A DNA stretch of 64,000 nt, taken from an uncultured Planctomycetales bacterium (GTDB lineage Bacteria > Omnitrophota > Gorgyraeia > Zapsychrales > CAYRXT01). The position numbers and the translations under genes are program-made. The notes beneath the pieces are model-generated. The model searched no databases. It saw nothing but the letters and a program-made list of their open reading frames with translations, and was not told the origin of the DNA. The DNA lies in NCBI GenBank assembly GCA_964428315.1, contig CAYRXT010000005.1, positions 12,592 to 76,591 on the forward strand, written 5' to 3'. Shown here piece after piece: positions 13,428 to 49,607 of this stretch (the first letter of the stretch is position 1; the number at the start of each line of letters is the position of its first letter).

Positions 13428-14675
13428 CTATGCCTGGGCGAGTATTTGACGGACCACCAGGCTGGCGGCCCCGACCGCAACGGCGTTATTCCCGAGACGT
13501 GAAGGGACAATCTTAACGGCCTGGGCCATCTCCGCGTAAGCGTGATTGGCGACAGACTCTTTAACAGCATTCAGGAAGACGTTGCCGCCCTCCTCCATCC
13601 CACCGCCGATAACGACGGCCTGAGGGTTGAGAAAATTCACCAGGAAGGCGACCTTGAGGCCGATCTTGAGTCCGGCCCGCCGCACAACATTGACCGCGAT
13701 GGGGTCGCCGTCTCTGGCGGCCTCAAAAACATGGCGCAGCGTGATGCTTGTCAGATTGCCGCCGGCTCTTAATAAAAGCTTATGGCTCCGGTTTTCCGGC
13801 CTCCGAAGGATTTCCCGCGTCTGCCGAACAATCCCCAAGTCGTCTTCCCAGGCTTCGAGAAAATGGATGTCCTTGGGGTTGAGGTCAAGGTATTCTCCCG
13901 CCGGGCAATCTCTCAGGGCCAGCTCGCCCGCGCATCCGCTGGCGCCCCGATAGACCTCCCCGTTCAAGATGAGTCCGCTCCCCACTCCGGAAAACATATA
14001 AATCAAATCACGTATCTCGGGATCGGAATTCATCCACTGCTCTCCGAAACACGAAACGGTGGCGTCGTTTTCCAGACAGCAGGGCAGGCCGAACCGTGAT
14101 TCCAGGTTTTCCTTGATGGGGGCGTAAATAGTGACGTACTCGCACCCTCCGGTCGGTCTTTTTTGCGGCCATCGGATCGTCCCGCTCTGATTGTCGACAA
14201 TACCCGCGATCCCGACGCCGATGCCGGCGAGTTTTTTGCGGTCATCGGACGGAAGCTGATCCCTCAGTTCGTTAATCATGCCGCTGGCATAGTCCAGGAT
14301 ATCGGTGGCATTTCGATAGGGGCTTTCCTTGACGACACGGGCGACGATATTGCCGTTAAGGTCGACGACCACCCCGACCATATCCAGCAGGTTGAGGCCG
14401 ATGCCGATAGCCAGATTTACCCGCCCGTTGATCTCCAGAAGGGCCGGCCGGCGCCCGCCGGCTGAAACGTCAAGTGCTTTGATATTAACGAGTTTTGCCC
14501 GTAAATAATGATCGATATAATTCGATATGGTAACAATATTGAGGCCGGACATCCGGGAGATATCCGCCTTGCTGACCGGGCCTACTCGCCGGATTGTCTC
14601 GAGGATGGCGAGATTCCGTCTGGATCTTTCGTTCAAGTTTTCTTCCTGAAGCTGAAGGGCTTTCACGGTTTTCAT
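13428..14675 (-). CDS. ROK-family transcriptional regulator (NagC/XylR-like)
   Basis: N-terminal wHTH followed by a ROK sugar-kinase-like fold with Gly-rich motifs (GIGVGIAGIVD) and Cys residues (CCLEND...C...C) consistent with the ROK zinc site. Confidence 0.9.
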   Translation of the reverse strand: MKTVKALQLQEENLNERSRRNLAILETIRRVGPVSKADISRMSGLNIVTISNYIDHYLRAKLVNIKALDVSAGGRRPALLEINGRVNLAIGIGLNLLDMVGVVVDLNGNIVARVVKESPYRNATDILDYASGMINELRDQLPSDDRKKLAGIGVGIAGIVDNQSGTIRWPQKRPTGGCEYVTIYAPIKENLESRFGLPCCLENDATVSCFGEQWMNSDPEIRDLIYMFSGVGSGLILNGEVYRGASGCAGELALRDCPAGEYLDLNPKDIHFLEAWEDDLGIVRQTREILRRPENRSHKLLLRAGGNLTSITLRHVFEAARDGDPIAVNVVRRAGLKIGLKVAFLVNFLNPQAVVIGGGMEEGGNVFLNAVKESVANHAYAEMAQAVKIVPSRLGNNAVAVGAASLVVRQILAQA

Positions 14676-14755
14676 TTTTTTTCGCTTTCTCCAGAAGGTC
14701 TTGGTCTATAGTACAGTATGGTTGCAGCGTTGTCTATCTTTTCCTGCCAAATTAC

Positions 14756-15385
14756 TCATTCATACTTGATCCCGTCCAGGTAAAAGGTGCACCCTTCAGA
14801 ATTGACATCCGCGTTGGTCGCCCAGGCAAACCCGCCGCTGATATAGGTCAGATCCTTGCCCCTCAGATCAATCGCATATTGCTTCCACTGCGTCGTCAAG
14901 AAGACCGGTCCGACCATCGCGCTGTCCGAATCTGGATAATCACCCGGTATGCCGCCCATTTTGAATTCTTCGATCCGTTCCCTTCCGGTTTCGCCCCTGG
15001 CCCAAAACGTCAGCTTGCTCGCGCCGGTAAGGTCAAAACCACCCTTACGGTTACCCCAATTATTCGCAGGGTTTTGCCAGTAGACCCCCGCCCATTGCTG
15101 ACCCTGCCTGGAGCATTCGACATCATAGACGATTTGGATGCAGGTATTGCCCGAATGACAATCTTTTTGCCAGGCCTCGTTAATCTTGATGCATCCGGCA
15201 TCACCCATAAAACCCGAAGGGATAAAATGATTGTCTCGCGACCCTTTGTCCTGATAGACGACAAAAGGCGCGAAATCGCTCTGTGCCTCCTGTTGCCCGG
15301 AAACCGACTGGCTCTGCGTTGTCCCTTTTTCACAACCGAACAAAACACAAAAAGACAACGCCCCTGCAAGCAATATCTTCCGCAT
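14756..15385 (-). CDS. Secreted lipoprotein, probable carbohydrate-binding beta-sandwich
   Basis: MRKILLAGALSFCVLFGC lipobox. Body GVYWQNPANNWGN...GFDLTGASKLTFWARGETG is aromatic and Gly rich with no catalytic motifs. The CBM-like call is inference. Confidence 0.6.
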   Translation of the reverse strand: MRKILLAGALSFCVLFGCEKGTTQSQSVSGQQEAQSDFAPFVVYQDKGSRDNHFIPSGFMGDAGCIKINEAWQKDCHSGNTCIQIVYDVECSRQGQQWAGVYWQNPANNWGNRKGGFDLTGASKLTFWARGETGRERIEEFKMGGIPGDYPDSDSAMVGPVFLTTQWKQYAIDLRGKDLTYISGGFAWATNADVNSEGCTFYLDGIKYE

Positions 15386-15448
15386 GGTCACAACCTTCCT
15401 TGTTTTCTTATTGCACTTGATGATAATACCGCCGGGTTAACTAACGGC

Positions 15449-16306
15449 TTAGCTCATTTCTTCCAGTTCATCCAGCTTCTGCTGCGCGGCTTCGGCCGGT
15501 TTCCAGAACCAGCCCTGCGGATCCCAGCTCTGGGCGAAGTAGTAGTCGTCGATAACCTTCTTATAGGCCTCTTTGGCCTTACCGTGCTGGCCGGCCTTGC
15601 GGTAGGCCTCGCCGCGTATGAAATAACAGGTCCCCACATCATTGAGGGCCCAGAAAGAAAATATCTTCTCATTGGATTCCCATGGATATTCGTTCAAGGA
15701 GGCCTGCATTTCCTGGGCCTTCTTCGCATACAGCTCGATGCATTTGTCCGTATAAGCCAGAACAGCCTCCAGATTGTCCTGAGACAGCGCCTGCCAAGCC
15801 TTGGCCGACAATGTGGAAGACGTGTAATCACCGAAATCGATGTTACTGCCGGATTCGAGATTGGCCAGCTTTTCCTTCGCGGCCTCGGCCGGTTTCCAAA
15901 ACCAGCCCTTCGTGTCCCAGCACTGGCCGTAGGTGTAGTCGTTGATCAGTTTCGTGTAAACTTCCTTGGCCTCGTCAATCATATTGGCCTTGCGATAGGC
16001 CTCCCCCTGAATAAACAGACAGGTGGCGACATCATTCAGCGCCCAGTATTTGAAGATCTCTTCATTGGTCCCCGATGGATATTCGTCCAAACCCGCCTGC
16101 ATCTCCCTGGCCTGCGCGGCGTAAAGTTCGACGCATTTGTTCGTGTAGGCCAGAACTCCTTCGATATCGCCTTTCTCCAGCGCATCCCAGGCCTTGGATG
16201 CCAGGGTTACCGAACGGTAATCGCCGAAATTGTAGGCGGCCGCCAGTGTAGGACACATCCAGGTAACGCCCAAAGCAATAACGAGTGTGACGATCCATTT
16301 TTTCAT
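15449..16306 (-). CDS. Secreted protein made of two tandem copies of a ~125-aa Trp/Tyr-rich helical domain (unassigned family)
   Basis: Signal peptide MKKWIVTLVIALGVTWMCPTLAAA; strong AAGGAGGAAG SD. The two halves align ~55% identical. Core motif: FWALNDVGTCYFIRGEAYRKA...AKEAYKKVIDDYYFAQSWDPQGWFWKPAEAA. Confidence 0.75.
   Translation of the reverse strand: MKKWIVTLVIALGVTWMCPTLAAAYNFGDYRSVTLASKAWDALEKGDIEGVLAYTNKCVELYAAQAREMQAGLDEYPSGTNEEIFKYWALNDVATCLFIQGEAYRKANMIDEAKEVYTKLINDYTYGQCWDTKGWFWKPAEAAKEKLANLESGSNIDFGDYTSSTLSAKAWQALSQDNLEAVLAYTDKCIELYAKKAQEMQASLNEYPWESNEKIFSFWALNDVGTCYFIRGEAYRKAGQHGKAKEAYKKVIDDYYFAQSWDPQGWFWKPAEAAQQKLDELEEMS
15470..16290. repeat. Tandem direct duplication (~405 bp x2, ~75% nt identity) inside gene 15449..16306
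   Basis: ccggtttccagaaccagccctgcggatcccagc...(15494-) re-occurs as ccggtttccaaaaccagcccttcgtgtcccagc...(15884-), and the similarity continues for ~400 bp. Confidence 0.8.
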
Positions 16307-16334
16307 GACTCTTCCTCCTTTTGTTGTTACCGTT

Positions 16335-18764
16335 TTACTTGTTCCACAATTCCTTGTACAGAAAATAACTCTCCCTCAACTGCCGCAGAAACGGGCTGTG
16401 TTTCCCGTTGCCCTGACCGATCAAGCCAAACCATTCCTCGTACATGTACCCGTCGGGGAAAGGTCCCTGGGCCCCGGCCGTTTTGTCGTGGTAAGCGGGT
16501 TCGTAATTTTTCCACCACTCATCCATCCATTCAAAGACAATGCCGCCGATCGCGTTGCCCGCTCCTTCCTTGGTCCCCGCGGCGTTTTTCTCGATATCCA
16601 TCCAGTTGCCCAGGTGGTAATCGGCCTGCGCCTCTTCCGCGTCTTCCCTCGAAAGGTGACCGGCATAGGCGGGACAACCGTATTCCGTAATGAATCCGGG
16701 TTTCCCTGTCGCATCTGAGACCTGCTCCCAGAAAGCGCCGAAGCCGTAATCCCCGCGGTAGGCGTTCGCGGCAAAGGCATCGACATTCGGACAGAACTTG
16801 GCAAAGATATCCAAGTATAATACATCACCGTTGCACATGGCAACCGGATGATCCGGATCGACGGATTTGATCCAGGCGGCCACTTCATCGACGAATGCGT
16901 AATAGGCTTCGGGTTTTGTGTCGGCGTTGCAGGCCACCCCGTAATTGTTTTCATTGCCCAAAAGCCACATGAGGATGTAAGGTTCGTCCTTGTATTCCAT
17001 GACGATTTTTTTGACGGAATCCAGCATGTTTTTCCGGTGCTCCGGATTTTCGTAATCCGTCCCCTCATACCAGCTGGCCCCCGAACCCAGGGCGTATTTA
17101 CCGAGAAAATCGCCCATAACCACCATAATGCCTGTCTCTTCGTACATCGCACGCAGAAGCTCCTTGTCGGGCTCGAAGGGCTGATGATAAACACGGATGA
17201 CGTTGGCGCCCAGCTCCTTGAGCAACCGGAAATCCCCAACGACGGGTTCATCTTCATCCTGTTGGTTGTTACGATTGGCGTCGACCCAGCTGTCATAAGG
17301 GCCGTCGGCCAGACCGTTCCCGTTCGTGTCCTCGGTCATCCAGTTGGTAAGCGTCCCTTTGTCCGGGCTCTGCCCCACCTTGGTCGCCACGTAGGTGATC
17401 CCTTTGATGATAAACGGTTTTCCTTCGACAAGGATCTGCCAGTGGTCGTTTTCGTACTGGACCAACTGCACCCGGCCTTCATTTAACCTGCGCTTGATCT
17501 CGCCGAGCTTCGCCCGCTTTTTCCCAAAACCGATCTGGTCTATGACCCTTGCGAACCTGCTTCGCACTTTGTCCCATAAAGACAAGCGCCGCACGCGTCC
17601 GGGATACGTGATAACCTGATCGTTCGAGACATCGTTGTCCGCCCCGTTGATCACCCTGATCTTCGCCCATTCAAACGTCAATCCAAGTTCCGGATGAATA
17701 CGGATCAGATGACGGATCTTGGCTATGGCCGCCTGCCCCGGGTACCAGGGCGTATTCCAGTACGTCCGTCCGGTCGAACGGGGAAAATGCACGACGATAG
17801 CATGATAGGCCTTGATGGCTTCATAATACATCCGGGCCTTTTCGAAGATCAAACCGATATAAAACAGCTTGACACCCCACGGCTCCGGGGCCAGCGCCCA
17901 CTTATACAGGGCCGCCTCCAAGTCATCAGTATGCACGAAATCCCAGTGGCTGCCTTCCAGCCGTCCCTCTTCTTTAGCTTTTTCGTAATTGGGATCTTTG
18001 CGGACAGCGCCGGTATTAGGATAGACGCCCTCTCCGACGGCAGCAGAAAGCCCGACGGGGTCGTTTACCTTGTATGAATACTGTTTGGTCCCCACGTTCA
18101 TGAAGGTGCCGTATTTGGTGTAATCAACGACCTGAACGCCGGGCTCGGCCAGACGCGGCATAGTCATTATCCCGCGGTCGACCTTCGGTGGCTCCTTATC
18201 CTTCTCTTCCGCGCGCCCTTCCAGCATGTCTATGCTGGCCTGACTTTTTTCCGCGATCGACCAGTACCATCCGCGGGGATCCCAGGCCTGAGCCCATCTG
18301 TAATCGTCTATGATCCTTTGGAAAATCTCTATCGCCTCCTCGGCCTGCCCGTTATTCATCAGTGTTTCCGCCCGGATAAACATGCACGTGCCCACGTCAT
18401 TCAGGACCTGGTACTGGACAACGGCATCCCGCGGGGGGAAATCTTCGAGCTGGGCGTTGAGTTCAAAGGCCTGCGCTCCATAAGTGTTGAAACACTGTTG
18501 TGTCAGCCTGAAAACTTCATCAACCTTATTGTTGCCGGAGGCCTCCCAGGACATGCGGACCAGTTCCCGTGAGCTGACTGCTTCTGCGACGGCCTCCTCC
18601 GTTTTTTCTGAACCGGAAGGGTCCACCCGCTCGCCGGTCTCATCACCGGTTTGATGAGCGCGGTTTGCCTCGGAAGTCTGGGCATGAGATACGGAGATAT
18701 GGAAATAGGAAACGATCCAGGCGAACAATACAATCAAAAAAATTTGACATATCTTATTATTCAT
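16335..18764 (-). CDS. Secreted clan GH-A (GH2/GH5-like TIM-barrel) glycoside hydrolase with N-terminal copies of the Trp-rich repeat domain
   Basis: Signal peptide. N-terminal region contains YQVLNDVGTCMFIRAE...IIDDYRWAQAWDPRGWYWSIAE, the same domain as gene 15449..16306; a degenerate second copy is KWALAPEPWGVKLFYIGLIFEKA...WYPGQAAIAKI. C-terminal barrel has NVIRVYH, LLGNENN (acid/base E) and FITEYG (nucleophile E). Confidence 0.8.
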   Translation of the reverse strand: MNNKICQIFLIVLFAWIVSYFHISVSHAQTSEANRAHQTGDETGERVDPSGSEKTEEAVAEAVSSRELVRMSWEASGNNKVDEVFRLTQQCFNTYGAQAFELNAQLEDFPPRDAVVQYQVLNDVGTCMFIRAETLMNNGQAEEAIEIFQRIIDDYRWAQAWDPRGWYWSIAEKSQASIDMLEGRAEEKDKEPPKVDRGIMTMPRLAEPGVQVVDYTKYGTFMNVGTKQYSYKVNDPVGLSAAVGEGVYPNTGAVRKDPNYEKAKEEGRLEGSHWDFVHTDDLEAALYKWALAPEPWGVKLFYIGLIFEKARMYYEAIKAYHAIVVHFPRSTGRTYWNTPWYPGQAAIAKIRHLIRIHPELGLTFEWAKIRVINGADNDVSNDQVITYPGRVRRLSLWDKVRSRFARVIDQIGFGKKRAKLGEIKRRLNEGRVQLVQYENDHWQILVEGKPFIIKGITYVATKVGQSPDKGTLTNWMTEDTNGNGLADGPYDSWVDANRNNQQDEDEPVVGDFRLLKELGANVIRVYHQPFEPDKELLRAMYEETGIMVVMGDFLGKYALGSGASWYEGTDYENPEHRKNMLDSVKKIVMEYKDEPYILMWLLGNENNYGVACNADTKPEAYYAFVDEVAAWIKSVDPDHPVAMCNGDVLYLDIFAKFCPNVDAFAANAYRGDYGFGAFWEQVSDATGKPGFITEYGCPAYAGHLSREDAEEAQADYHLGNWMDIEKNAAGTKEGAGNAIGGIVFEWMDEWWKNYEPAYHDKTAGAQGPFPDGYMYEEWFGLIGQGNGKHSPFLRQLRESYFLYKELWNK

Positions 18765-18887
18765 GCGGCATACCTTTATTAGGGGTCATCAATGAATTGT
18801 ATTTTAACATTTTACAATATTTTAAAAAGTATTTAAATGATTTTTTAATAATATAAGAAAACGCTTTCCTTAATTATAACATATATT

Positions 18888-19748
18888 TTAGTCTCCGACC
18901 GATCCAGTTGCAAGTCCTTTAACTATATGTCTTTGCATCAACACATAAACAAGAATAACGGGCACGGCCGTGATCGTCAATCCGGCCATAAGAAGAGGAT
19001 ATTCTACAATATGAATACCCTGGAATTCCATTAAACCCTTTTGCAGCGGCATCAGGGTTTCATCGTTTAACAAAAGATTGGCCAGTATATACTCATTCCA
19101 GACATTCAAAACGTTAAATATCACAATTACGGCAATCGCCGGTTTGGCCATGGGCAAAGCGACATGCCACCAGATGCCCCATTTGGAACACCCGTCCATC
19201 CGCGCAATATCTTCAAGGGCCGAAGGCATTTTGTCGAAAAACGTCTTGAGAAGGAAGATGCTCAGGGCCAGCCCCACATTGATCATACAAAGGATGTAAC
19301 CGATCCGCGTATTGATAAGATGCAGTTTATTCATCAGCACATACAAGGGGACAAAGCTCCCCGGCAAAGGGATCATCATTGCCGCCAGAAACATGAAAAA
19401 AAGAACACGCCGCCCCGGGAATCTTAACCGGGAAAAGGCATAGGCCGCCAAAGAAGCGACCAGAATAATCCCCGCGACAACGCAAACTGTATAAATCACG
19501 CTGTTGACAAAATAAAGGCCGAACTGTCCTTCGCTCCAGGCCTTAACGAAATTTTCCGGATGGAGCTCAGACGGCAAGAGGGCCTTTTCAACAAATATGG
19601 TCTCATTGTCCATCAGGGCCGAACGGACCATCCAGAGAAGAGGGAAAAGACACGTAACAGTCACCGCCAGGAGAAGGATATGAAGAAAAACATTGCGGAC
19701 ATGCAATCTGAAACGCGCTTGCGTCTGCGTCAAGGCTATGCCATTCAT
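18888..19748 (-). CDS. ABC sugar transporter permease (MalG/UgpE-like)
   Basis: Six-TM MalG-type topology; the EAA-like loop IARMDGCSKWGIWWHVALPMAKP. Confidence 0.9.
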   Translation of the reverse strand: MNGIALTQTQARFRLHVRNVFLHILLLAVTVTCLFPLLWMVRSALMDNETIFVEKALLPSELHPENFVKAWSEGQFGLYFVNSVIYTVCVVAGIILVASLAAYAFSRLRFPGRRVLFFMFLAAMMIPLPGSFVPLYVLMNKLHLINTRIGYILCMINVGLALSIFLLKTFFDKMPSALEDIARMDGCSKWGIWWHVALPMAKPAIAVIVIFNVLNVWNEYILANLLLNDETLMPLQKGLMEFQGIHIVEYPLLMAGLTITAVPVILVYVLMQRHIVKGLATGSVGD

Positions 19749-19751
19749 AGA

Positions 19752-20678
19752 CTAGGCCTGTCTCATCTTTTTGAATATGCCCATACTTATTAAAGAGACG
19801 ATAATCAAGATGAATCCGAAAAAGATGCTTTGGGCGCACGCATATCCAAAACGGTTCGTCTCCATCATGGAAGACAGGATGCGTGTTACCGGAACCGCCG
19901 TATGGTAGACCAGCCCCTGTCCGACCATCGATAAAACCAGCACAAAGACCTGCATGGACCCGAGCAGGGTCAAGATCATAACAACACCGATAACAGGCAC
20001 CATCATCGGGATAGTGACATGCCGGAAAACGTTCCAGCCTCCCGCTCCGTCAATCCTGGCGGCCTCATACAATTGGGGATCGATCGTCTGCAGGCCGGCG
20101 AGAAAAATAATGAATCCCCAGCCGAAACCTTTCCAGCTGTGCACGACGGCGATACAGGGCAGAGCCGTAGCGGGATCCGACAACCAGTTGTGCGCCAAAT
20201 GGGGCAGGCCGGTCCCGGCCAACATATGATTCAAAAACCCGATGTGTTCGCCCTGTTGTGTTCCAGAATAAAGGATCCAGGACCAGACCATCCCTACGAC
20301 GACCTCCGACAGAACGGGCGGGATGTAAAAAATAACCCGGTAAAATTTCCTCATCCGGATATCCTGATCACAAGCGAGGGCCAGGGCAAAAGCCAAGGCG
20401 TTCTGGAACGTCAGGGCAATCAGCGTAATGAAACCGGCGTTACGTAAAGAAATACCCCATGTCGCATCCTGCATCAGTTCCCTGAAATTCATCAACCCCA
20501 CGAATTCCCGATGCAGGCTGATGCCGTTCCATTCGTAAAACGACAAGCGGAAGATCTCAAAAAAGGGATAGACATAAAAAACGGCGAATATGGCCACTGC
20601 CGGCACAATAAACAGGATATTCTCGAAGTTTTCCCGAAAACGGTTTAAAGCGGCTGGCTGTATTCGGGCTATGGACAT
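19752..20678 (-). CDS. ABC sugar transporter permease (MalF/UgpA-like)
   Basis: MalF-type permease with the EAARIDGAGGWNVFRHVTIP EAA motif. Confidence 0.9.
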   Translation of the reverse strand: MSIARIQPAALNRFRENFENILFIVPAVAIFAVFYVYPFFEIFRLSFYEWNGISLHREFVGLMNFRELMQDATWGISLRNAGFITLIALTFQNALAFALALACDQDIRMRKFYRVIFYIPPVLSEVVVGMVWSWILYSGTQQGEHIGFLNHMLAGTGLPHLAHNWLSDPATALPCIAVVHSWKGFGWGFIIFLAGLQTIDPQLYEAARIDGAGGWNVFRHVTIPMMVPVIGVVMILTLLGSMQVFVLVLSMVGQGLVYHTAVPVTRILSSMMETNRFGYACAQSIFFGFILIIVSLISMGIFKKMRQA

Positions 20679-20740
20679 ATGGTCAACCTGTTATGGGTCA
20701 ATCGCGCGGTCCCGGTTCTGTGCGCGGACGGACGTTTCTG

Positions 20741-22027
20741 TCAACGCCGGATCTTTTGCATCTGCCGCTCTTTGACGTCCTGGATGTCCTTGGCTGCCTG
20801 CTCGGGCGTCTTTTGCCCGATAATGATAGTCTGTATCCCCCTGGCGAACGCCTCGGACACAACTTCATCTTCATTATAAGGCCAGATGCTGGGATGCGTG
20901 CTCTGATCCATAGCGCCGACAAACTGCGCCAAGAGCTCGGGCGCTTCCGATAAGGCGTGACGGTTGGCCGGAAGGTTGCGCGTCTTCTCCGCCAGGAACG
21001 CCTGCTGTTTCTTGGCCGTCAACCAGCGGAGAAAATCGACGGCCTTGTCCTTGAGGGGCGAAGAGTTGTTGACGACGAATGAGGATCCGGCGCCGCCCCA
21101 TATCTTCAAGGGATAATTTTTGCTGACGGGCGGCGGCCGCATAACGCCGTAATCCAGGTCGGGATTCATCTTATGATAAACGTTCACGCACCACGATCCG
21201 TTAAAGGCGAAGGCCGCCCTTTCGAGGGCAAAATCCTGTTCCGCGTATTTATTACCCTTGATCACGATGCCCTCCATCAGGGCCTTATGATCGACGAGGG
21301 CCTTAAAAATGTTGAATACCTCAATCCAGTCGGGATCCGTATACGGCACCTCTCCCTGAAAGGTGTCCATAATCTTGTCCTCTCCCATAATATTGAAAGC
21401 ATAGTTCATGGCATAACAGTTGATCAGCCACAACTCGCTCCAACCCGAAACAAAAGGCGCGATCCCCACCCTGTTCAGGGCATCTACGGCCTCCAGGTAC
21501 TCATCAAAAGTGGAAGGAGGACGTCTGACACCCGCCTTTTCCAGTAACCCCCTGTTGTAGACCATTTGGACGCTGGTAATGTCGATGGGCACGCCGTACA
21601 GGCCCGGCTCGACACCCTCGAGATTGCCTTTTTCAAAACGGTTCACCGCCAGGGCCTTATCAAGAAAGGTCTTATGCCACCGACCGTTTTCGTCTTCAAA
21701 GGCATCCGTCAGATCGGCGACAAAACCGCTCTTGATAAACGAGGCGAAAATCTTTTTCTTGTCCAAAACGCCGTAAATATCCGGCAGGACGCTTGCCTGG
21801 GCCGCCGCTACTATTTTTCGTGAATAATCTCCTGAAGGGGCGTAAAGCTTGAACCTGACCTTGATCCCGGTCTCATCTTCATAGTCACGGGCAAGTTCCC
21901 GGAAGGCATCATGCCGGTCGGTCATCCAGTGCCAGACGACGAGAGTGTCCGGATCCCGGCGCGGCTGGCCGCATCCCGCGAACAACAGCAACACAGCCAT
22001 AATAACTATTGGCAGAGATCTGTTCAT
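20741..22027 (-). CDS. ABC transporter extracellular solute-binding lipoprotein (family 1, oligosaccharide)
   Basis: Lipobox LLFAGC; ~430 aa SBP_bac_1-like. No ATPase gene in the cluster, so a shared MsiK-type ATPase encoded elsewhere is assumed. Confidence 0.85.
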   Translation of the reverse strand: MNRSLPIVIMAVLLLFAGCGQPRRDPDTLVVWHWMTDRHDAFRELARDYEDETGIKVRFKLYAPSGDYSRKIVAAAQASVLPDIYGVLDKKKIFASFIKSGFVADLTDAFEDENGRWHKTFLDKALAVNRFEKGNLEGVEPGLYGVPIDITSVQMVYNRGLLEKAGVRRPPSTFDEYLEAVDALNRVGIAPFVSGWSELWLINCYAMNYAFNIMGEDKIMDTFQGEVPYTDPDWIEVFNIFKALVDHKALMEGIVIKGNKYAEQDFALERAAFAFNGSWCVNVYHKMNPDLDYGVMRPPPVSKNYPLKIWGGAGSSFVVNNSSPLKDKAVDFLRWLTAKKQQAFLAEKTRNLPANRHALSEAPELLAQFVGAMDQSTHPSIWPYNEDEVVSEAFARGIQTIIIGQKTPEQAAKDIQDVKERQMQKIRR

Positions 22028-22036
22028 AGGGCTTTC

Positions 22037-24451
22037 TCACATCCAGACTTTGACCTGATGCAGTCTGCCGTCGCCGAACGGCCGGATGAGGTTGCCTTCG
22101 ATTTCCTGGTCGTCCACCAGGATTTGAGACACCCCGCTTTCACGGCCCTTAGGATTAAGGATCTCGATCTGGTATATATCGCCGCGGAAGGGCCGCTGGA
22201 CGCTACATTTCTTCCATCCTTTGGGGATACAGGGATCGATCCTTAGTCCTTCGAAGTCCCGGCGCACCCCCAGGATCCATTCCGTCGCGGTCATGAAGCA
22301 CCACCCCGATGAACCCGTAATCCAGGTGAACGCGCCTTCACCGTAACGGTAGGGATTCTTCGGCCCGACAAGATATTCCGCAAGAACATAGGGTTCCGTT
22401 TTATAAAGATCCATATCCTTCTGGGCGTTCGGCATGATCTTTCTGACGGCCTCATAGGCCTTGTCCCCGCAGCCGCACATCGCGTAAGCGACGGCCATAA
22501 AAGTCGCCGCGTGGCAGAACACCGCGGCATTCTCCTTTGTCCCTTCGGAAAACATGCTGACGCGACCAAGCCGTCCGACCCATGAACTGTAAGCCGGGGC
22601 AAAAAGAGCGAGCCCGTGCGGACCGTTCAGATACCTTTCCACCGAACGGAAAAGTTTCTGTTTCCTCTCATCGCTGACAACGCCGGCCAGGATACCCCAC
22701 GCCTGTGCTGTCAGGAAGATCTTCCCTTCTTTGTCGTTCTTGCTGCCGTAAACCTGTCCCTTGTCATCGAAACCGCGGACATACCAGGAGCCGTCCCATC
22801 CCACCGCGTTGATCCGTTCGTCCATCGTCCTGGACATTTGGAGATACTCTTCTCTCTTGTCCTGCTGGCCGAGGAGGTCAAAGAGATCCGCCAGCATCTT
22901 CATGGAACGGACAAGGGCCTGGGCCAGCCAGATGCTTTCCCCTCGGTGCCTGATGCCGGCCGCGTCGATGGCATCGTTCCAGTCCGCGTGCCCGATCCGG
23001 GGCAGGCCCTTTTCTCCCACATCGTTAAAACAGTATAAAAGATTTTTCTCGAGATGCTCTATGAGGGTCCCCTCACCGTCCGTTTGAGATCCTCCGGTCC
23101 AATGAAGGTCGATCTCCCACCCGTCTTTCCATTTATCCTTCAGATAAGGGACATACTCCAACAGCAGGCTTTTATCTCCCGTTTCCTTGATATAGGCGCT
23201 GACTGTGGCCGTGAGCCAGACCTGGTGGTCTTTGTTCGGACGGTATTTGTGGGGCCCGGTGGTATCGGACCATCCCGGCGCGCTGGTCCCGTCGCGGCGA
23301 ATCAGTGACGCCAGCTTGAGAATCTTGGCGCGCGTCAGGTCGTGATTGATCGACACGATCGCTTCCGAATCCTGGCAGGAATCCCGGTATCCCCGTCCTC
23401 CCGATCCTTCGTGATAATAACTGGGAGACCGCGACCAGAAATTGCAGATATAGATCTGGTATTTGAGCCAAATATTGACAAGGACATTGAGATCTTTATC
23501 CGGCGTCTCCACCGTGACATTATCCAGGATCCTGTTCCGCCAGATCTGCTTCGTCCTGGCCAGTTCCTTTTCGGCCGTTCTGACATCCCTGTATTTGGCC
23601 AGGATCCTGGGGATCCTTGTGATCGCGTCAGACTGGCCGAGGACAACCGTGAATGTTTTCGTCTGGCCCGGTTTCAGCTTAACCCTGTGCCTGAAGGCCC
23701 CGATGCCGTCCTCCCCCGAACACAGCGACGTATTCCTGGCCCTGGTTTCTCCAATAGCCTGCGGATTCTCTTCCGTGTTATAAGGGCCGACAAATTCATT
23801 CTTCCGGGTGAAATGTCCCGATATCCCTAAAGACGGGGAAAAGAAAATCTGTCCGCGGAACGGCTGAATGTTCATCCCTTTCCATTCGGCGGTTTTTTTG
23901 GCAAAGATGGCCTTGTGTTTCTTGTCGAACCAGACGCGGTTGTAAAGGTTCATGATGTTGCGGTACCGCAATTCTTCATGGTAGTCGCCGATGAGGAATT
24001 CGACGTAAGGATAGACCTCCAGATTCCTGTCCCGACGGGACTTGTTTGTCATCTTGACGATCCAGACCTCACAGGGATCGTCCTCGGGCACAAAGTATGT
24101 CACCTGGGAGGCTATCCCGCTGTTAACGGATTCGATGTCGGTATAGCCTAGTCCGTGCCGGCATTCATAGAACGACGGTTTGACGCGCAACGGCTGGTAG
24201 GTCGCCGCCCAGGCCTTTTTCCCTTCACGCACAAAGAGGTATTTGCCGGGACGGTCAAAATGCCAGCATTCGGGAAGCCATCGGGTGATGCGGTGGCTGC
24301 GGCAGTCTTTATAAAAACTGTATCCCCCCGCGCACTGCGAGATGATCGAACAATATTCTTTGTTTGTGAGATAATTGATCCAGGGGCGGGGAGGCTTACA
24401 GGTCGATAGGATGAACTCGGTCCCATCCGAAGAAAAATGCCCGTATTTCAT
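22037..24451 (-). CDS. GH94-family glycoside phosphorylase (cellobiose/cellodextrin/chitobiose phosphorylase-like)
   Basis: 804 aa, cytoplasmic (no signal peptide). Contains GSGGRGYRDSCQDSE and IGHADWNDAID motifs and the (alpha/alpha)6 catalytic region typical of GH94. Substrate specificity not assignable. Confidence 0.8.
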   Translation of the reverse strand: MKYGHFSSDGTEFILSTCKPPRPWINYLTNKEYCSIISQCAGGYSFYKDCRSHRITRWLPECWHFDRPGKYLFVREGKKAWAATYQPLRVKPSFYECRHGLGYTDIESVNSGIASQVTYFVPEDDPCEVWIVKMTNKSRRDRNLEVYPYVEFLIGDYHEELRYRNIMNLYNRVWFDKKHKAIFAKKTAEWKGMNIQPFRGQIFFSPSLGISGHFTRKNEFVGPYNTEENPQAIGETRARNTSLCSGEDGIGAFRHRVKLKPGQTKTFTVVLGQSDAITRIPRILAKYRDVRTAEKELARTKQIWRNRILDNVTVETPDKDLNVLVNIWLKYQIYICNFWSRSPSYYHEGSGGRGYRDSCQDSEAIVSINHDLTRAKILKLASLIRRDGTSAPGWSDTTGPHKYRPNKDHQVWLTATVSAYIKETGDKSLLLEYVPYLKDKWKDGWEIDLHWTGGSQTDGEGTLIEHLEKNLLYCFNDVGEKGLPRIGHADWNDAIDAAGIRHRGESIWLAQALVRSMKMLADLFDLLGQQDKREEYLQMSRTMDERINAVGWDGSWYVRGFDDKGQVYGSKNDKEGKIFLTAQAWGILAGVVSDERKQKLFRSVERYLNGPHGLALFAPAYSSWVGRLGRVSMFSEGTKENAAVFCHAATFMAVAYAMCGCGDKAYEAVRKIMPNAQKDMDLYKTEPYVLAEYLVGPKNPYRYGEGAFTWITGSSGWCFMTATEWILGVRRDFEGLRIDPCIPKGWKKCSVQRPFRGDIYQIEILNPKGRESGVSQILVDDQEIEGNLIRPFGDGRLHQVKVWM

Positions 24452-24588: not shown

Positions 24589-24924
24589 CTACTGGCAGAA
24601 ACGCATCAGCCGATGCATGTTCATCAACTGAATTTCATTGAAGCGGATGCCTGCTTTTTGATCAGCGTCGGTCTTGTCGTTCTCTTCAATCCAGATGATT
24701 GAACCTTTCAGGATAACGGGATCATGGCCGTCAGGCAGGTTTACTACGAGGGAAACCGGCTCATTCATCGTGAAATCCTGCCGGGAGACAAGCTTCGCAC
24801 CTTCGGCGGAAAGGTCTTGAAGAATGCCGCTGTTACCTTCACTTTGGGACATCTCCCCAAAGCGGACCGGCAGATCGGCATTCAACCGGCCAAAAATCCT
24901 TCTGTCACCCGCACGCTCCATCAT
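24589..24924 (-). CDS. PilZ-domain protein (c-di-GMP receptor), single domain
   Basis: RRIFGRLNADLPVRF (RxxxR) and DLSAEGAKLVS (DxSxxG). Start trimmed to the ATGATG at 24924, which has a GAGAGAGG SD; the track start at 24993 would overlap the upstream gene. Confidence 0.7.
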   Translation of the reverse strand: MMERAGDRRIFGRLNADLPVRFGEMSQSEGNSGILQDLSAEGAKLVSRQDFTMNEPVSLVVNLPDGHDPVILKGSIIWIEENDKTDADQKAGIRFNEIQLMNMHRLMRFCQ

Positions 24925-24937
24925 CTTCTGACCTCTC

Positions 24938-25258
24938 TCAAACAAAGACCTTGCAACGCCGTATCTTGGACTTCGCACCATGGATAATCTCAATGAACTT
25001 CAGTCCAACGCGATACCGGGAACCATCCCCGATCTTGTTGATCCATTGCACAACGCCCAGGGCCAGCACCGGATCTTCATCCGGGTTAAGATCAATCTGA
25101 ACCATCATCCTGGTATTGACAGGGATATAACGATCGGAAACAAACCCCGCGCCCCCTTCGGAAATATCCACCGTCCGGCTGCCGTCAAAGGGAGCGCCGG
25201 ATTTGACATCAACGAGTACGCGGCAGTTTTTTCTTGGGTTTTTCCTTTGGTTTACCAT
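24938..25258 (-). CDS. PilZ-domain protein (c-di-GMP receptor), single domain
   Basis: QRKNPRKNCRVLV (RxxxR) and DISEGGAGFVS (DxSxGG); 106 aa. Confidence 0.7.
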   Translation of the reverse strand: MVNQRKNPRKNCRVLVDVKSGAPFDGSRTVDISEGGAGFVSDRYIPVNTRMMVQIDLNPDEDPVLALGVVQWINKIGDGSRYRVGLKFIEIIHGAKSKIRRCKVFV

Positions 25259-43023: not shown

Positions 43024-44772
43024 TCATTTTTCCGCATCTCTCCACTTTTTTTCCAAAGAACGCCGCGCATCGATGAAAACAGGGTGTCCCGGAAAGGCCT
43101 CAAGACTTCTGCGAAGCGCACCGCGGATTTTGTCCCTTTCCCCTGACAAGACGGCGCTTTGGAGATACCGTTCCAGCGTCGGTCTATCCGGCTCAATGAG
43201 CCCGAGAACGTCCTCATAGCATGCCGCGGCCCGGGCATGTTCTCCACGGCGGGCATAGGCCCAGCAGAGATCTTTGCGGGCGTTGACATAATCCGGCCGC
43301 AGGGCCAAGGCCTTCCTTAAAAGCGCGATAGTCTTGTCCGGGTCGTGAATATGCGAAACCGCCAGATCACGTAAATAGACGGGATGTTCCGGATCCAGAC
43401 GAAGACTTTTTTGAAAATGTTCCCTCGCCTCGGCGTAAAGGCCAAGACGCGCGTAACAGACGCCCAGACGGTGATGCGGCCTCGGATACGAGGGATAGTG
43501 CTCCGCCAGAAAGGAGGCCTGCGCGAACTCGTCTCTCCACAAACCAATCAAGGACAATGAAGAGACAAACACGACACTCACTAATCCCAGCCTGACGGTG
43601 TACCGCAGACCCTGCCGCGTCGTGAACATCTTTCTGGAAAAAACACTATCCTCAAGCCAGAGGACCAAAGCGGCCATCATCCCGGCGAGGGGTATATACA
43701 AGAAACGCCAGGCCATGGGATTGATCAAGGGAATGATATTGGACGCCGGGACAAGCCCCAGGGCAAACCACAGGAGAAAAAAGAGCCGCCTCCTGTCTTG
43801 TCGGAAACTCCGAAACAGGATCCACACGCTGGCCGCGCACACCGTTACCGATACAAGGTTTTGGAGATCCCATAGAGGAAGAACATCGGGCCGGAAAACC
43901 GCAGGCAGAGGTTTGACCATGACCGGGAACAGGACAGCCAGCACATAACCGGCCAGGATATCGACGACCGTGAGGACATGGACAAAGAGGCTGTTCTCAA
44001 AAAGCGTCAATCCCGAAAGGCTCTGGGCCGGGAAAACAACCGCATAAACAACGGCATAAAAGGAAAAGACGCACAGAAAGCCAAGGTAATCGGTCCTCAA
44101 CCTCCGCCGGAAAGGCGCGACGCCGCGATGGCCGGGAAAACAATGATCGCAGGCCGGAAGGAGCCCCAGGAGAACAACCGCCGTTTCTTTGCTGAACAGT
44201 GCCAGTCCAAACAGCGCCACCGAGAGCGCTGTCCTCCGGCGCACATAAGCCAAGAGCGAAGTCGCGACAAAGAAAAAAGCCGCGATATCCGACCGGAATC
44301 CGATATTCACCACGGCCTCAGTGCCCGCGGGATGCAGGGCAAACAGGAGCGCGCTGAAAAAGGCCGTCTCTTTCCGGGAAAGAAGGGCGAAGATCAAAAA
44401 ATAGAAAACGACCGCGTTGGCGAGGTGAAGTAGGATATTCGTCAGATGATAGCCGAAAGGCCGGCCCCGCCAGAGATAATAATCCCAGAAAAATGTCGCG
44501 CTGACAACCGGCCGGTAGGTGACCGACCCGGACCCCAGATCCCCGCGGCCTTTGAGAAAGGCCTCGTCGCTGACCGTAAAATAGCTCTCGTCGAACAGAC
44601 GGACAACATTCTCCGGACGGGAATAGAACGTGTTGTTGACGATGATCAGGTAATCGTCACCGACAAAGTCATGTCCCAGGCTGGGCGCATAGAGCGTGCC
44701 AGCCAGCAACACAATCATAAGGATGTTGCGCCAATGTCCCGCCGGCGTTTTAACTAACGGGCTAGAAGGCAT
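43024..44772 (-). CDS. Polytopic GT-C-fold (PMT/ArnT/TMTC-like) membrane protein with C-terminal TPR repeats
   Basis: N-terminal HDFVGDDYLII motif and ~10 TM helices like DUF1736/PMT_2 glycosyltransferases. C-terminal ~180 aa are TPR-like (HHRLGVCYARLGLYAEAREHFQKSLRLDPEHP...). Start chosen at the ATG at 44772, an 11-nt overlap with the upstream gene. Confidence 0.6.
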   Translation of the reverse strand: MPSSPLVKTPAGHWRNILMIVLLAGTLYAPSLGHDFVGDDYLIIVNNTFYSRPENVVRLFDESYFTVSDEAFLKGRGDLGSGSVTYRPVVSATFFWDYYLWRGRPFGYHLTNILLHLANAVVFYFLIFALLSRKETAFFSALLFALHPAGTEAVVNIGFRSDIAAFFFVATSLLAYVRRRTALSVALFGLALFSKETAVVLLGLLPACDHCFPGHRGVAPFRRRLRTDYLGFLCVFSFYAVVYAVVFPAQSLSGLTLFENSLFVHVLTVVDILAGYVLAVLFPVMVKPLPAVFRPDVLPLWDLQNLVSVTVCAASVWILFRSFRQDRRRLFFLLWFALGLVPASNIIPLINPMAWRFLYIPLAGMMAALVLWLEDSVFSRKMFTTRQGLRYTVRLGLVSVVFVSSLSLIGLWRDEFAQASFLAEHYPSYPRPHHRLGVCYARLGLYAEAREHFQKSLRLDPEHPVYLRDLAVSHIHDPDKTIALLRKALALRPDYVNARKDLCWAYARRGEHARAAACYEDVLGLIEPDRPTLERYLQSAVLSGERDKIRGALRRSLEAFPGHPVFIDARRSLEKKWRDAEK

Positions 44773-47597: not shown

Positions 47598-49595
47598 TCA
47601 TTCCTTCAGGCTCAATGGATTGAAATTCTCGATGGCCATCATCATGTACGCCGTCCCCGCCACCGAACCGGTCCGGTCGCCGTAAGGTGTTCGCCAGCCA
47701 TGACCGGTATCGGCGTATTCCAGAGTCGCGTAAGGCAAGCATCCTTCCCCCTGGCCCAGAGGCGAGGGGCTGGAAATGATCAGCTTGTTGAGCTCGTCCA
47801 GATAACGCGAGGCCTTCCGCCGGTAATACACCGCCTTCATATCGTTGCCTCCGGCGGAAAAATAGTCGGCGAGGATCTGGAAAGAGATTGCCATCTGCGA
47901 CGTCCATTCCGGTGAGACCATGCCGCCCCGCGGCATGTGCTTGTGCCTGGCGAAATCAAAACCCGTGACCTCGACCTCGACGCCGCTCGGACGGGGATAC
48001 ATCACCGTCACGCCGCAGTGTTCTTCGGCAAAATTCATGATCCGTTCGGGATCCATCCCCAACGATTCAAGCATCTCCGGACCCAGGGCCGCCAGAGACC
48101 AGGCGAAGGTATCGGTGGCGATGGTAGCATCACCCCGGCCCCTGTTTACCGGCGGCCTCCGGTAATCCCCGCTGTGTTTCACCATGGCGTAGGTCTTGAG
48201 CCAGCTTGCGGTCTTTCGGCGGGCCACATCGTATTTGTCCTTGTTCGTTAGCCGGTGGAGCATATCAAAGAAGGCGTAGGCGTCCAGGTTGTGCTCGGTG
48301 GCGAACCAGTCGAAATCGGGTCCACCGCGCAGTCCGCCGGCCGGGTCCTGGTCCTGGAGCGCAATCAGCCATCCGGCGATGGCTTCGGCCAGCGGAAGAT
48401 AAGAAGAATCCCCCGTTTTATGTTGATACTGCATAGCGGCGATGCCTGCCCATATGTTGGGACCGCAGTGGACGGTATACTCGGCGACTTCGCCGGAATC
48501 AAAGAAGTACGCGTTGTAAAAACCGGCATATCCTTGTGACATCATTCTCGAAAAGAAATTGAGGATCTTCTTCGCCCGCGGGACGTCTTCCGCCAGCAGA
48601 AAACAGTTGACGGCCAGGGCCTGATCGTAGATGAAGGCCCAGTCCTCGATGACGCCGACCTCTCCTTCAAAACTTTTCACGAGGCCCGTCGTCGAGCTCT
48701 GATGCCGGGCAAGCCACGCGTGCATCTGTTTCCAGACGGAATCTCTGAGGCCCTTTTTCTGTCGCTCGAGCATCTCCCTCTCGTCCTCCATCATCCTCTC
48801 CCGGCGCACCAGAAGATCATACTCGTCTTCCAAAGGCCCACGCCTTTCCTTCATTTCACGGAGTGTTTTTTTCAGGTCCATGATCGTTTTTTCCGACAGT
48901 TTCAACTCCCGGGCCATGGCGTCTTCCTGCTGTGTCCGCACGCGCAGGCCCTCCTGCGCCTCCTCAAGCCGGGCCGTCAAAGTCCGGATTTCGCGTGAAT
49001 ATTCGGCTATATCTTCCGCCAGCCTTGCTTTCCGGGATTCGATAGTCTCCAGGAGGCCGCCCAGGCGCGCCTCTTTCTGCTGAACCGTCACCAGGGCATC
49101 GACAAGCGCCGCGTTTCTTTCCTGCAGGCGCAGGTTATCCCTAAGACTGACAAGAAAAAGGGCAAAAAAGACACACACGGCCGCTGTCGCCAGGCGGGGG
49201 GCCCATACACTCCAGCGCGCATAACGGGTGAGCCGTTCCCGGTCAGATTCCGCTATTTCAACAAACCGCAGACCCGCCTGGAAATCAGCGGGAATGCGTT
49301 CCCCGGCCCGTTCCGTCCAGACCACCTCGCCCAAGGCCTCCACCGGAGGGCCGGACAAAGGAACGCGTATACGCAACCGGAGACGCGGCGGCCGGTTGTC
49401 CCGAGGCTTAAGCCAGTCCTCAAACTGATTGATGCCAAGACAAATGCCTCCGCGGCTGATATTGCAGGTGTAGCCCTGCTTCCAGACCGTTCCGTCCTCC
49501 TCCGGCGCCGCGCCGGGAGCGCGGTACTCCACGGGAAAGACGCTCTGCAAACGAATAAATTCTCTCTTATCGAGATGTAGAGTCTTTTTCTTCAT
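47598..49595 (-). CDS. PilZ domain - TM helix - long coiled coil - C-terminal ~340-aa globular (possibly alpha/alpha-toroid) domain protein
   Basis: N-terminal KREFIRLQSVFPV...YTCNISRGGICLGIN (PilZ), TM WAPRLATAAVCVFFALFLVSL, ~170 aa heptad E/R/L region, then an aromatic/Gly-rich domain (HCGPNIWAGIAAMQYQ...AEAIAGWLIALQDQDPAGGLRGG). Start at the ATG at 49595. Confidence 0.65.
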   Translation of the reverse strand: MKKKTLHLDKREFIRLQSVFPVEYRAPGAAPEEDGTVWKQGYTCNISRGGICLGINQFEDWLKPRDNRPPRLRLRIRVPLSGPPVEALGEVVWTERAGERIPADFQAGLRFVEIAESDRERLTRYARWSVWAPRLATAAVCVFFALFLVSLRDNLRLQERNAALVDALVTVQQKEARLGGLLETIESRKARLAEDIAEYSREIRTLTARLEEAQEGLRVRTQQEDAMARELKLSEKTIMDLKKTLREMKERRGPLEDEYDLLVRRERMMEDEREMLERQKKGLRDSVWKQMHAWLARHQSSTTGLVKSFEGEVGVIEDWAFIYDQALAVNCFLLAEDVPRAKKILNFFSRMMSQGYAGFYNAYFFDSGEVAEYTVHCGPNIWAGIAAMQYQHKTGDSSYLPLAEAIAGWLIALQDQDPAGGLRGGPDFDWFATEHNLDAYAFFDMLHRLTNKDKYDVARRKTASWLKTYAMVKHSGDYRRPPVNRGRGDATIATDTFAWSLAALGPEMLESLGMDPERIMNFAEEHCGVTVMYPRPSGVEVEVTGFDFARHKHMPRGGMVSPEWTSQMAISFQILADYFSAGGNDMKAVYYRRKASRYLDELNKLIISSPSPLGQGEGCLPYATLEYADTGHGWRTPYGDRTGSVAGTAYMMMAIENFNPLSLKE

Positions 49596-49607
49596 GGCTC
49601 CCAAGGT

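Follow-up and report, generated by a model that had tools for sequence, protein, structure and literature searches.

A cassette of minus-strand genes in a 64,000-nucleotide stretch of contig CAYRXT010000005.1 (assembly GCA_964428315.1), which stems from an uncultured bacterium of the Omnitrophota and is called the window below, encodes an exported glycoside hydrolase (GH), putative glycan binders, the solute-binding and membrane parts of an ATP-binding cassette (ABC) importer, and a GH94 phosphorylase. We lean, with somewhat better than even confidence, towards the reading that this cassette captures, cleaves, imports and phosphorolyses a β-glucan, probably β-1,3-linked (of the laminarin/curdlan type) or of mixed linkage, and that it resembles a Gram-positive polysaccharide utilisation locus (gpPUL) and is a conserved trait of the Omnitrophota. 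Sheridan et al. are said to have defined a gpPUL in 2016 by the presence of at least one polysaccharide-degrading enzyme together with a carbohydrate transporter and a regulator. In the window these are co-located as the hydrolase, the solute-binding protein (SBP) with two permeases, and regulators of the ROK and LacI families.

In the scheme that we propose, a lipid-anchored protein similar to carbohydrate-binding modules (CBMs) and proteins with a Trp-rich module resembling a tetratricopeptide repeat (TPR) would hold the polymer at the envelope, and an exported GH158-like retaining hydrolase would cut it into short oligosaccharides, with E605 as the acid/base and E694 as the nucleophile. The lipoprotein SBP and two permeases of the CUT1 type would import the products with the help of an ATPase from elsewhere that is shared, and the cytoplasmic GH94 enzyme would convert the oligosaccharides into glucose 1-phosphate and either glucose or a shorter oligosaccharide, which would spare ATP in a cell that lives by fermentation. 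Sugar-responsive regulators of the LacI and ROK types would control expression, and an AT-rich spacer might act as a second promoter for the genes on the hydrolase side. An earlier note on this DNA, made from its letters alone, had suggested the same logic of cleavage, import and phosphorolysis, and the gene content supports this general scheme. According to published descriptions, Omnitrophota are acetogens that ferment sugars and possess transporters for them (PMC10066038, PMC8542988).

One genome per species was scanned for the 809-aa hydrolase, and at least 578 species genomes encode it; 80 loci were retrieved, and their synteny was determined by tblastn with the window proteins. More than 1000 hydrolase homologues were found at 57-74% identity and, where named, nearly all belong to Candidatus Omnitrophota. 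The conserved order comprises two PilZ genes, a slot for the phosphorylase, the SBP, two permeases, the TPR-fused hydrolase, a tandem-module protein, the lipoprotein and a coiled-coil protein, followed by a LacI homologue in almost every locus that reaches that far. The transporter, hydrolase, TPR protein and lipoprotein are almost always present; SBP orthologues (52-68% identical) occur in nearly all related loci, in nearly all of which the lipoprotein is syntenic as well, and most loci have PilZ homologues in the same position and a coiled-coil homologue (25-50% identity) downstream of the lipoprotein. The boundaries drawn in the earlier note (13428-24451) proved too narrow, as the syntenic block also takes in the PilZ pair, the coiled-coil gene and the LacI gene.

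Two clades of loci were distinguished. The 285-aa tandem-module protein is found in clade-1 loci and not in clade-2 loci, which add a stand-alone GH158-like enzyme and have the ROK gene further downstream. This second GH158-like enzyme counts in favour of the β-glucan reading. The extra genes of clade 2 lie between the lipoprotein and the ROK gene (L049:13573-14973 and 14946-16619; L074:13648-14883 and 14852-17974) and encode the stand-alone GH158-like/GH72-like enzyme (411-466 aa) and a protein of 557-1040 aa with an N-terminal TPR only; in L074, a GH94 similar to cellobiose phosphorylase (CBP) is located downstream of these genes and not upstream of the SBP. When extra pathway enzymes were sought in the gaps inserted into some related loci, only a TPR protein, a major facilitator superfamily (MFS) transporter and unannotated open reading frames (ORFs) were found. 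The MFS_2 transporter, of the glycoside-pentoside-hexuronide type, and an unannotated 313-aa ORF lie on the opposite strand between permease and hydrolase of one relative (L002:8020-9600, minus strand). The full cassette is also present in L003, L004, L016, L017, L019 and other loci from 'binchicken' or co-assembly metagenome-assembled genomes that are titled 'uncultured Planctomycetales/Planctomycetia bacterium', with hydrolases 53-67% identical to that of the window; the taxonomy given in these titles is probably imprecise or mistaken.

Within the block, conservation is lowest for the GH94. Among the 56 loci with sufficient upstream sequence, the slot contains a CBP-like GH94 in 18 cases (62-74% identical to the 804-aa enzyme of the window) and an orthologue of laminaribiose phosphorylase (LBP) in 17, is empty in 21 and never holds both. 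In the 17 loci, a 904-aa protein is encoded directly upstream of the SBP instead; that of sister locus L005 aligns to the Paenibacillus LBP (6ggy, 913 aa) over residues 8-899 with E = 5e-267 and, on this alignment, is a full-length orthologue of the characterised enzyme. Neither the GH94 nor the lipoprotein nor the LBP orthologue was assigned to an NCBIfam family. A neighbour-joining hydrolase tree shows both GH94 types and the empty state interleaved, which argues for several swaps or losses. Because the two types never occur together and are interleaved on this tree, we suggest that they serve the same slot. The earlier note had described the locus as built around the GH94 enzyme, a view that we abandoned because the slot varies among the 56 loci while the rest of the core is near-constant: the core for capture and import is fixed, and the phosphorylase is added to it as an exchangeable part.

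The hydrolase consists of a Sec signal peptide, a disordered linker, a TPR-like/Trp-rich module of ~120 aa (64-182), a middle part with helices and a β-sandwich, and a C-terminal GH-A barrel (~460-809). Its nearest sequence relatives are GH158 and GH157 β-1,3-glucanases. The best PDB sequence matches were GH158(Pro) (9oro, 3.4e-14) and BuGH158 (6pal, 2.2e-7), with an identity to GH158 of only 22-29%, and the top Foldseek matches of an AlphaFold2 (AF2) model (pLDDT 74) were GH158 enzymes as well (1.7e-11). Sequence and model point to a (β/α)8 barrel of clan GH-A that is distantly related to GH158. E605 (LGNEN) and E694 (ITEYG) align to positions 135 and 221 of the GH158(Pro) chain, which correspond to Glu143 and Glu229 (offset +8), the acid/base and the nucleophile of that enzyme, respectively (PMC13195107); neither residue varies among 25 homologues. 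W236 of the processive cluster of GH158(Pro) falls in an alignment gap. Because GH158(Pro) releases mainly laminaribiose (PMC13195107) and 17 sister loci contain an LBP orthologue, the hydrolase and the phosphorylase of those loci fit each other.

The two solved GH158 structures couple the barrel to an Ig-like domain (PMC13195107), whereas the AF2 model ends with the barrel, which is preceded by the β-sandwich (~362-457) instead. Because this architecture is unlike that of the solved enzymes, we labelled the hydrolase GH158-like and did not file it as a GH158 member. An exported clan GH-A hydrolase, as announced in the earlier note, is borne out by the signal peptide and a TIM barrel that keeps both catalytic Glu residues. 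The extracellular cleavage assumed there is not: a Sec signal peptide is the only export signal of the enzyme, and the organism, which has a gene for an Omp85/BamA-type protein, probably has an outer membrane, so that a periplasmic hydrolase is equally possible.

The assignment of the 804-aa protein to GH94 was confirmed by the Pfam GH94 catalytic domain (PF17167, 1.8e-102, 344 bits at a cutoff of 27), the GH94 supersandwich domain (PF06165, 4.2e-66, 223 bits at a cutoff of 23) and full-length PDB matches to solved GH94 enzymes. The same Pfam and PDB matches ruled out membership in GH65 or GH36. An identical protein sequence is encoded on a 71.8-kb Logan contig. The enzyme matches the CBP of C. 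thermocellum (CtCBP; 3qde) end to end (3.5e-137). With CBP (EC 2.4.1.20; C. thermocellum, Cellulomonas uda/Cellvibrio gilvus) it shares the family, the four-domain layout, the length, the catalytic Asp and the phosphate-site His, and it differs in an identity of 33%, in two acceptor residues, in a deleted loop segment and in an insertion. The catalytic Asp D493 (WND) aligns to D490 of Cellulomonas uda CBP (CuCBP) and to CtCBP D483, the named catalytic residue (PMC10572201), and H647 aligns to the phosphate-site residue CuCBP H666; both are invariant in 22 homologues. The CuCBP residues E649 and Y653, which have roles in the acceptor site (PMC7896129, PMC7471185, PMC10318527), are replaced by R630 and F634, and these replacements are invariant in the 22 Omnitrophota homologues. 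A deletion of 15 residues spans the segment with ESFQ 496-499 of the ordered, pocket-closing catalytic loop of CtCBP, a segment that falls into the pocket, forms hydrogen bonds with the catalytic Asp and is essential for activity (PMC10572201); the short form is the clade consensus.

Judged by its sequence, the 804-aa protein is a GH94 enzyme with the four-domain layout of CBP and chitobiose phosphorylase (ChBP) and a non-CBP acceptor site, and a more open acceptor site is plausible. Orthology to LBP was not found, as 6ggy matched at 2.3e-46 in two partial stretches only. Arg609 and Lys613 of cellobionic acid phosphorylase (CBAP) are presumably equivalent to CBP E649 and Y653, a lead that we did not use as evidence. 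CBP, ChBP and CBAP share a relatively low overall identity (<30%), and ChBP and CBP are 35-38% identical by domain (PMC5309861). A Trp/Gly-rich insertion of ~17 residues (~439-460, KWKDGWEIDLHWTGGSQTDGEG) is located just before the catalytic-loop region, where CtCBP has few residues, and the clade consensus retains it.

The lipoprotein and the 285-aa protein are plausible glycan binders. The TPR-like module of the hydrolase ends in the invariant Trp-rich motif WDPRGWxW, and the 285-aa protein consists of two copies of this module (BLASTP, 38% identity; copy 2 1e-27, copy 1 1e-24). An exhaustive module search yielded 1061 representative clusters with 1-4 copies in proteins of ~84-2981 aa; by sequence, no solved structure is related to the module, and Pfam gives only weak TPR matches for it. 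The lipoprotein has 1044 homologues, all from Omnitrophota where named, and no Pfam or NCBIfam match. For its AF2 model (pLDDT 78), the top Foldseek matches were CBM30, CBM29, CBM8 and CBM11 with TM scores of 0.5-0.66, the CBM11 structure being a complex with a β-1,3-1,4 tetrasaccharide; the predicted fold therefore resembles β-glucan-binding CBMs.

The earlier note had claimed a CUT1-type importer without its ATPase, and this holds: the SBP and two BPD_transp_1 permeases were found, and a nucleotide-binding domain (NBD) of the MalK/MsiK type in no frame of the window. A six-frame search of the window detected no Walker A motif followed by an ABC signature, the signature alone had just a false match in the CysK-like protein and a non-coding match, and no ABC ATPase is among the Pfam calls on the genes of the source contig. 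An ATPase hidden by a split across frames, which the note had considered, was rejected because neither six-frame motif search gave anything credible. Because none of the 80 related loci has an ABC ATPase beside the permeases, its lack is a constant property of the cassette and not a peculiarity of this locus. The same is true of published β-glucan phosphorylase clusters, most of which lack NBD genes and for which NBD sharing with other ABC systems was proposed (PMC6484121), and we infer that the importer is energised by an ATPase that is encoded elsewhere and shared with other importers. Solved structures were uninformative on SBP specificity, as the nearest matches (maltose, xylo-oligosaccharide, chitin oligosaccharide and others) had similar weak scores. 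TonB-dependent receptor and SusD families are absent among the annotated genes of the locus and of ~57 of the 64 kb of the window, and a TonB-dependent-receptor/Sus-type import architecture is reported to be absent in Omnitrophota, for which 'GH2' flanks were described (bioRxiv 10.64898/2026.06.07.730766).

The regulator that is conserved with the block is the LacI-family gene, whose product has RbsR/PurR/CcpA-like NCBIfam matches below the cutoffs. The ROK protein, named as repressor of the locus in the earlier note, has a winged-helix region fused to a ROK sugar-sensing domain; it aligns from residue 22 (22-412) to the regulators Mlc, NagC and Lmo0178, covers positions 15-388 of 399 of the NagC profile and scores below the NCBIfam equivalog cutoffs. 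Because of the alignment to Mlc/NagC-type regulators and a degenerate kinase phosphate-1 motif (IGIGLNLLD), its identification as a ROK repressor is reasonable, but it is near the cassette in only some relatives, and as the regulator of the locus it gives way to the conserved LacI gene. The coiled-coil protein has only sub-threshold coiled-coil Pfam matches and a small C-terminal β-rich domain; despite its synteny, it has no recognisable link to carbohydrate metabolism. The AT-rich island that the note had placed between hydrolase and permeases is present and carries promoter-like hexamers. In a 15.8-kb scan, the spacer held or overlapped 4 of 20 promoter-like matches, which are consensus matches only, and no terminator-like site; a second promoter for the genes on the hydrolase side, and with it the two transcription units supposed in the note, is possible.

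Because of the relationship of the window GH94 to CBP, we also considered the use of cellodextrin or cellobiose, with a β-1,4-endoglucanase, a cellodextrin importer and a cellobiose or cellodextrin phosphorylase. CBPs are the closest solved GH94 relatives (3qde, 3.5e-137), JGI annotations name the homologues of the window GH94 'cellobiose phosphorylase', the shortened catalytic loop could admit longer cellodextrins as in cellodextrin phosphorylase (CDP) or BpGH94MLG (PMC10572201, PMC10318527), and CBM30/CBM11-like folds bind β-1,4-glucans too. We nevertheless regard this explanation as unlikely. Identity to CBP is just 33%, and GH94 enzymes of differing specificity have similarly low values (PMC5309861); the acceptor determinants of CBP are all changed clade-wide (E649 to R; Y653, which is also kept in CDP, to F; ESFQ loop deleted); the nearest sequence relatives of the hydrolase are β-1,3-glucanases and not cellulases; and LBP fills the same slot in sister loci. 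On the substrate shortlist of the earlier note, laminari-type substrates are thus favoured by the GH158/GH157 relatives and the sister LBP, and cellodextrins are disfavoured by the altered acceptor features. Nothing points to chitooligosaccharides, the third option, and a function of the GH94 as ChBP is very improbable: ChBPs are the next-best solved relatives (1v7v, 8bou, ~1e-110), the SBP has weak NgcE-type and NagB-type matches and the ROK regulator is NagC-like, but these matches are far below the family cutoffs, ChBP has Val at the position of CBP Y653 (PMC10318527) where the window enzyme has Phe, the cassette contains no GH18/GH19/GH20 or GlcNAc-catabolic genes, and the hydrolase is related to glucanases.

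Two further explanations concern the origin of the glycan. West-Roberts et al. reported that pilZ genes, SBP-dependent transporters and glycosyl hydrolases are conserved downstream of giant genes (bioRxiv 10.1101/2023.11.21.568195), and the cassette could be the import and degradation arm of a predation apparatus for glycans of any linkage stripped from prey or host envelopes by giant 'archaeovorin' proteins. The unusually high conservation of the hydrolase across the phylum (55-75% identity) would fit such a fixed, lifestyle-defining substrate, and an open frame of >1300 aa enters 11 of the 80 related loci at their upstream edge. These ORFs (L051, L055, L059, L061, L064, L066, L068, L074, L079, L080 and L081) measure 1386-2150 aa within the first 4-6.5 kb; presumably each is the 3′ part of an Omnitrophota giant gene that closely precedes the PilZ/SBP cassette. 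However, in the window and in its closest relatives the 10 kb upstream of the cassette contain no giant gene, and the flanking genes are housekeeping genes instead; no giant gene was found beside this copy of the cassette in the entire window; LBP, the GH158-like fold and the similarity to β-glucan-type CBMs point to glucans that are not standard polymers of bacterial or archaeal walls, and Pfam and NCBIfam detected no peptidoglycan- or pseudomurein-directed domains in the cassette. We give this explanation little credence, although, as it concerns the source of the glycan, it is partly compatible with the β-glucan reading. Turnover of an endogenous periplasmic or surface glucan, the fragments of which would be re-imported and phosphorolysed under the influence of cyclic di-GMP (c-di-GMP) through PilZ, seems improbable to us. 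The hydrolase may be periplasmic given its Sec signal alone and the Omp85/BamA-like protein, PslG is among its Foldseek neighbours, and conservation is very high. TPR-type modules and adjacent PilZ genes are also reminiscent of the Bcs, Pel, Pga and Alg systems, which is a lead only. Against this, the cassette and its conserved flanks lack a glycosyltransferase, a synthase and any export component, an SBP-dependent importer with phosphorylase and LacI/ROK regulators is the signature of a catabolic locus, and the lipoprotein resembles substrate-capturing CBMs.

The capture and use of a β-1,3-linked or mixed-linkage β-glucan also has several observations against it. The GH94 of the window itself is not an LBP orthologue, and 21 of the 56 loci lack a phosphorylase in the slot; the nearest solved SBPs bind diverse oligosaccharides and give no pointer to glucan specificity; nothing in the data looks like a glycan importer of the outer membrane; the hydrolase may reside in the periplasm or at the surface; and β-1,3-glucan is not obviously available in all habitats of the cassette (groundwater, sediment, lake).

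Bacteroidota β-1,3-glucan polysaccharide utilisation loci (PULs) with BuGH158 (PMC7157763) and the processive GH158(Pro) (PMC13195107) contain the closest characterised relatives of the hydrolase barrel. They share the catalytic Glu pair and lipoprotein glycan binders next to the enzyme, and we count their products, laminaribiose or laminari-oligosaccharides, as a further likeness. The cassette differs from these PULs in lacking a SusC/SusD pair and in import via an ABC system, and its hydrolase differs from both enzymes in the long N-terminal extension (TPR-like module, helical region and β-sandwich) and the lack of a C-terminal Ig-like domain. The mixed-linkage glucan locus of Blautia producta (GH16, GH94, AraC and ABC transporter; PMC10318527) likewise has an exported endo-glucanase with glycan-binding modules, a lipoprotein SBP with permeases, a cytoplasmic GH94 of CBP/ChBP size with an open acceptor site, a local regulator and the logic of cleavage, import and phosphorolysis. 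In the Omnitrophota cassette, by contrast, the cutter is a TPR-fused GH158-like clan GH-A enzyme and not a GH16 with CBM4 modules, the binders are separate proteins (the CBM-like lipoprotein and the tandem TPR-like protein), an ATPase gene is lacking, the host probably has an outer membrane, and the cassette is conserved phylum-wide and not strain-variable.

LBP clusters of Paenibacillus sp. YM-1 and Acholeplasma laidlawii as well as GH161/GH94 clusters (PMC6484121) also combine a GH94 with an adjoining SBP and two permeases, usually without an NBD, and include a β-1,3-glucanase or have one nearby; the sister Omnitrophota loci encode a true PsLBP orthologue. The window GH94 differs in belonging to the CBP/ChBP-like branch and not to LBP, and the cassette has no GH1/GH3 β-glucosidase and no GH161/GH149 partner. 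The neighbourhood in Fig. 7C of West-Roberts et al. (bioRxiv 10.1101/2023.11.21.568195), with PilZ genes followed by SBP, permeases and hydrolase, is almost certainly the same. It was described there generically and read as prey cell-wall degradation, whereas the cassette of the window stands alone without a giant gene, and the GH158-like barrel, the CBM-like lipoprotein, the shared TPR-like module and the alternating GH94 types were not identified. The neighbourhood has thus been partly noted before in the literature on giant genes; what appears to be new is the inferred substrate and the interchangeability of the phosphorylases.

All eight minus-strand genes listed in the earlier note are ORFs that lie exactly where it had placed them, and Pfam supports their assignments, except for the lipoprotein of 211 aa, which has a lipobox and no Pfam match. 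The intergenic gaps from the ROK gene to the GH94 gene measure 80, 57, 28, 123, 3, 62 and 9 nt; the range of 3 to ~60 nt previously given outside the hydrolase-permease junction applies to most of them (up to 62 nt) and is slightly off for the 80 nt between the ROK and lipoprotein genes.

Features of the cassette and its syntenic flanks in the window
Feature	Position	Strand	Evidence
LacI-family transcriptional regulator, 333 aa	11003-12004	-	Pfam LacI 3e-16 and Peripla_BP_3 1.7e-34
Membrane-anchored coiled-coil protein, 419 aa	12014-13273	-	N-terminal transmembrane helix and long coiled coil
ROK-family regulator, 415 aa, N-terminal winged-helix region	13428-14675	-	Pfam ROK 4.8e-39
CBM-like lipoprotein, 209-211 aa	14756-15391	-	LFGC lipobox; predicted β-jelly-roll
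Exported tandem-module protein, 285 aa	15449-16306	-	Weak TPR Pfam matches; Sec-type signal peptide
Exported multidomain GH, 809 aa	16335-18764	-	Pfam Glyco_hydro_2_C 2.5e-14 and TPR; Sec signal peptide
AT-rich GH-permease spacer, 123 bp, 21% GC; candidate internal promoter	18765-18887		Sequence and GC content
ABC permease, MalG/UgpE-like, 286 aa	18888-19748	-	BPD_transp_1 6.6e-16; NCBIfam UgpE/GlcU/MalG-like below cutoff
ABC permease, MalF/UgpA-like, 308 aa	19752-20678	-	BPD_transp_1 5.1e-16; NCBIfam GlcT/UgpA/MalF-like below cutoff
Lipoprotein SBP of CUT1-type carbohydrate ABC importer, 428 aa	20741-22027	-	SBP_bac_1/SBP_bac_8 ~4e-31; LFAGC lipobox
Cytoplasmic GH94 glycoside phosphorylase, 804 aa	22037-24451	-	Both GH94 Pfam domains; no signal peptide
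Second PilZ-domain protein, 111 aa (database gene call; mechanical ORF to 24993)	24589-24924	-	Pfam PilZ 3.9e-12
First PilZ-domain protein of the pair, 106 aa	24938-25258	-	Pfam PilZ 1.3e-13

The locus is flanked by housekeeping genes, among them purH, folC, mnmE, mnmG and a cysK-like gene. A plus-strand ORF of 698 aa (14594-16690) is almost certainly a shadow ORF antisense to the lipoprotein gene, the 285-aa gene and the start of the hydrolase gene, and its translation is of low complexity and rich in Arg and Pro. Further along the window, a 934-aa protein (44762-47566, minus strand) has precomputed Pfam matches to Peptidase_M1 and Omp85 (BamA-type), an unusual pairing. Directly upstream of its gene, a protein of ~650 aa is encoded (47598-49604, minus strand) whose sole recorded Pfam match is PilZ; if the two small PilZ genes (24589-25258) are counted as well, c-di-GMP receptor domains are numerous in the window.

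Omnitrophota are abundant, uncultured and ultra-small, and their food source and host dependence are open questions, for which the cassette provides a testable lead on diet. Williams et al. concluded that Omnitrophota import sugars and lack enzymes for the initial depolymerisation of polysaccharides (PMC8542988), a view that the conserved exported endo-type hydrolase argues for revisiting. A wider reading, possible in our view though doubtful, combines several claims: the cassette would be the core, phylum-defining feeding module of the Omnitrophota, the TPR-fused hydrolase would found a new GH-A family or a deep GH158 subfamily, the Trp-rich module and the lipoprotein would be new glycan-binding domains, and the GH94 would have an undescribed specificity, all directed at one fixed glycan that these host-dependent nanobacteria take from partners or from their own coat. 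If this were true, an acceptor that is longer or carries other substituents, and may be acidic, would suit the open pocket and the Arg at the position of CBP E649.

Nearly every sampled lineage keeps the cassette, in which an importer and an exchangeable GH94 accompany an endo-type hydrolase that is exported and putative glycan binders of two kinds. The deep GH158-like lineage, the family of TPR-like/Trp-rich modules and the CBP-like GH94 clade with its remodelled acceptor site are candidates for new CAZy-type entries and may represent new families or specificities, and the question of what Omnitrophota feed on becomes testable on four or five soluble proteins.

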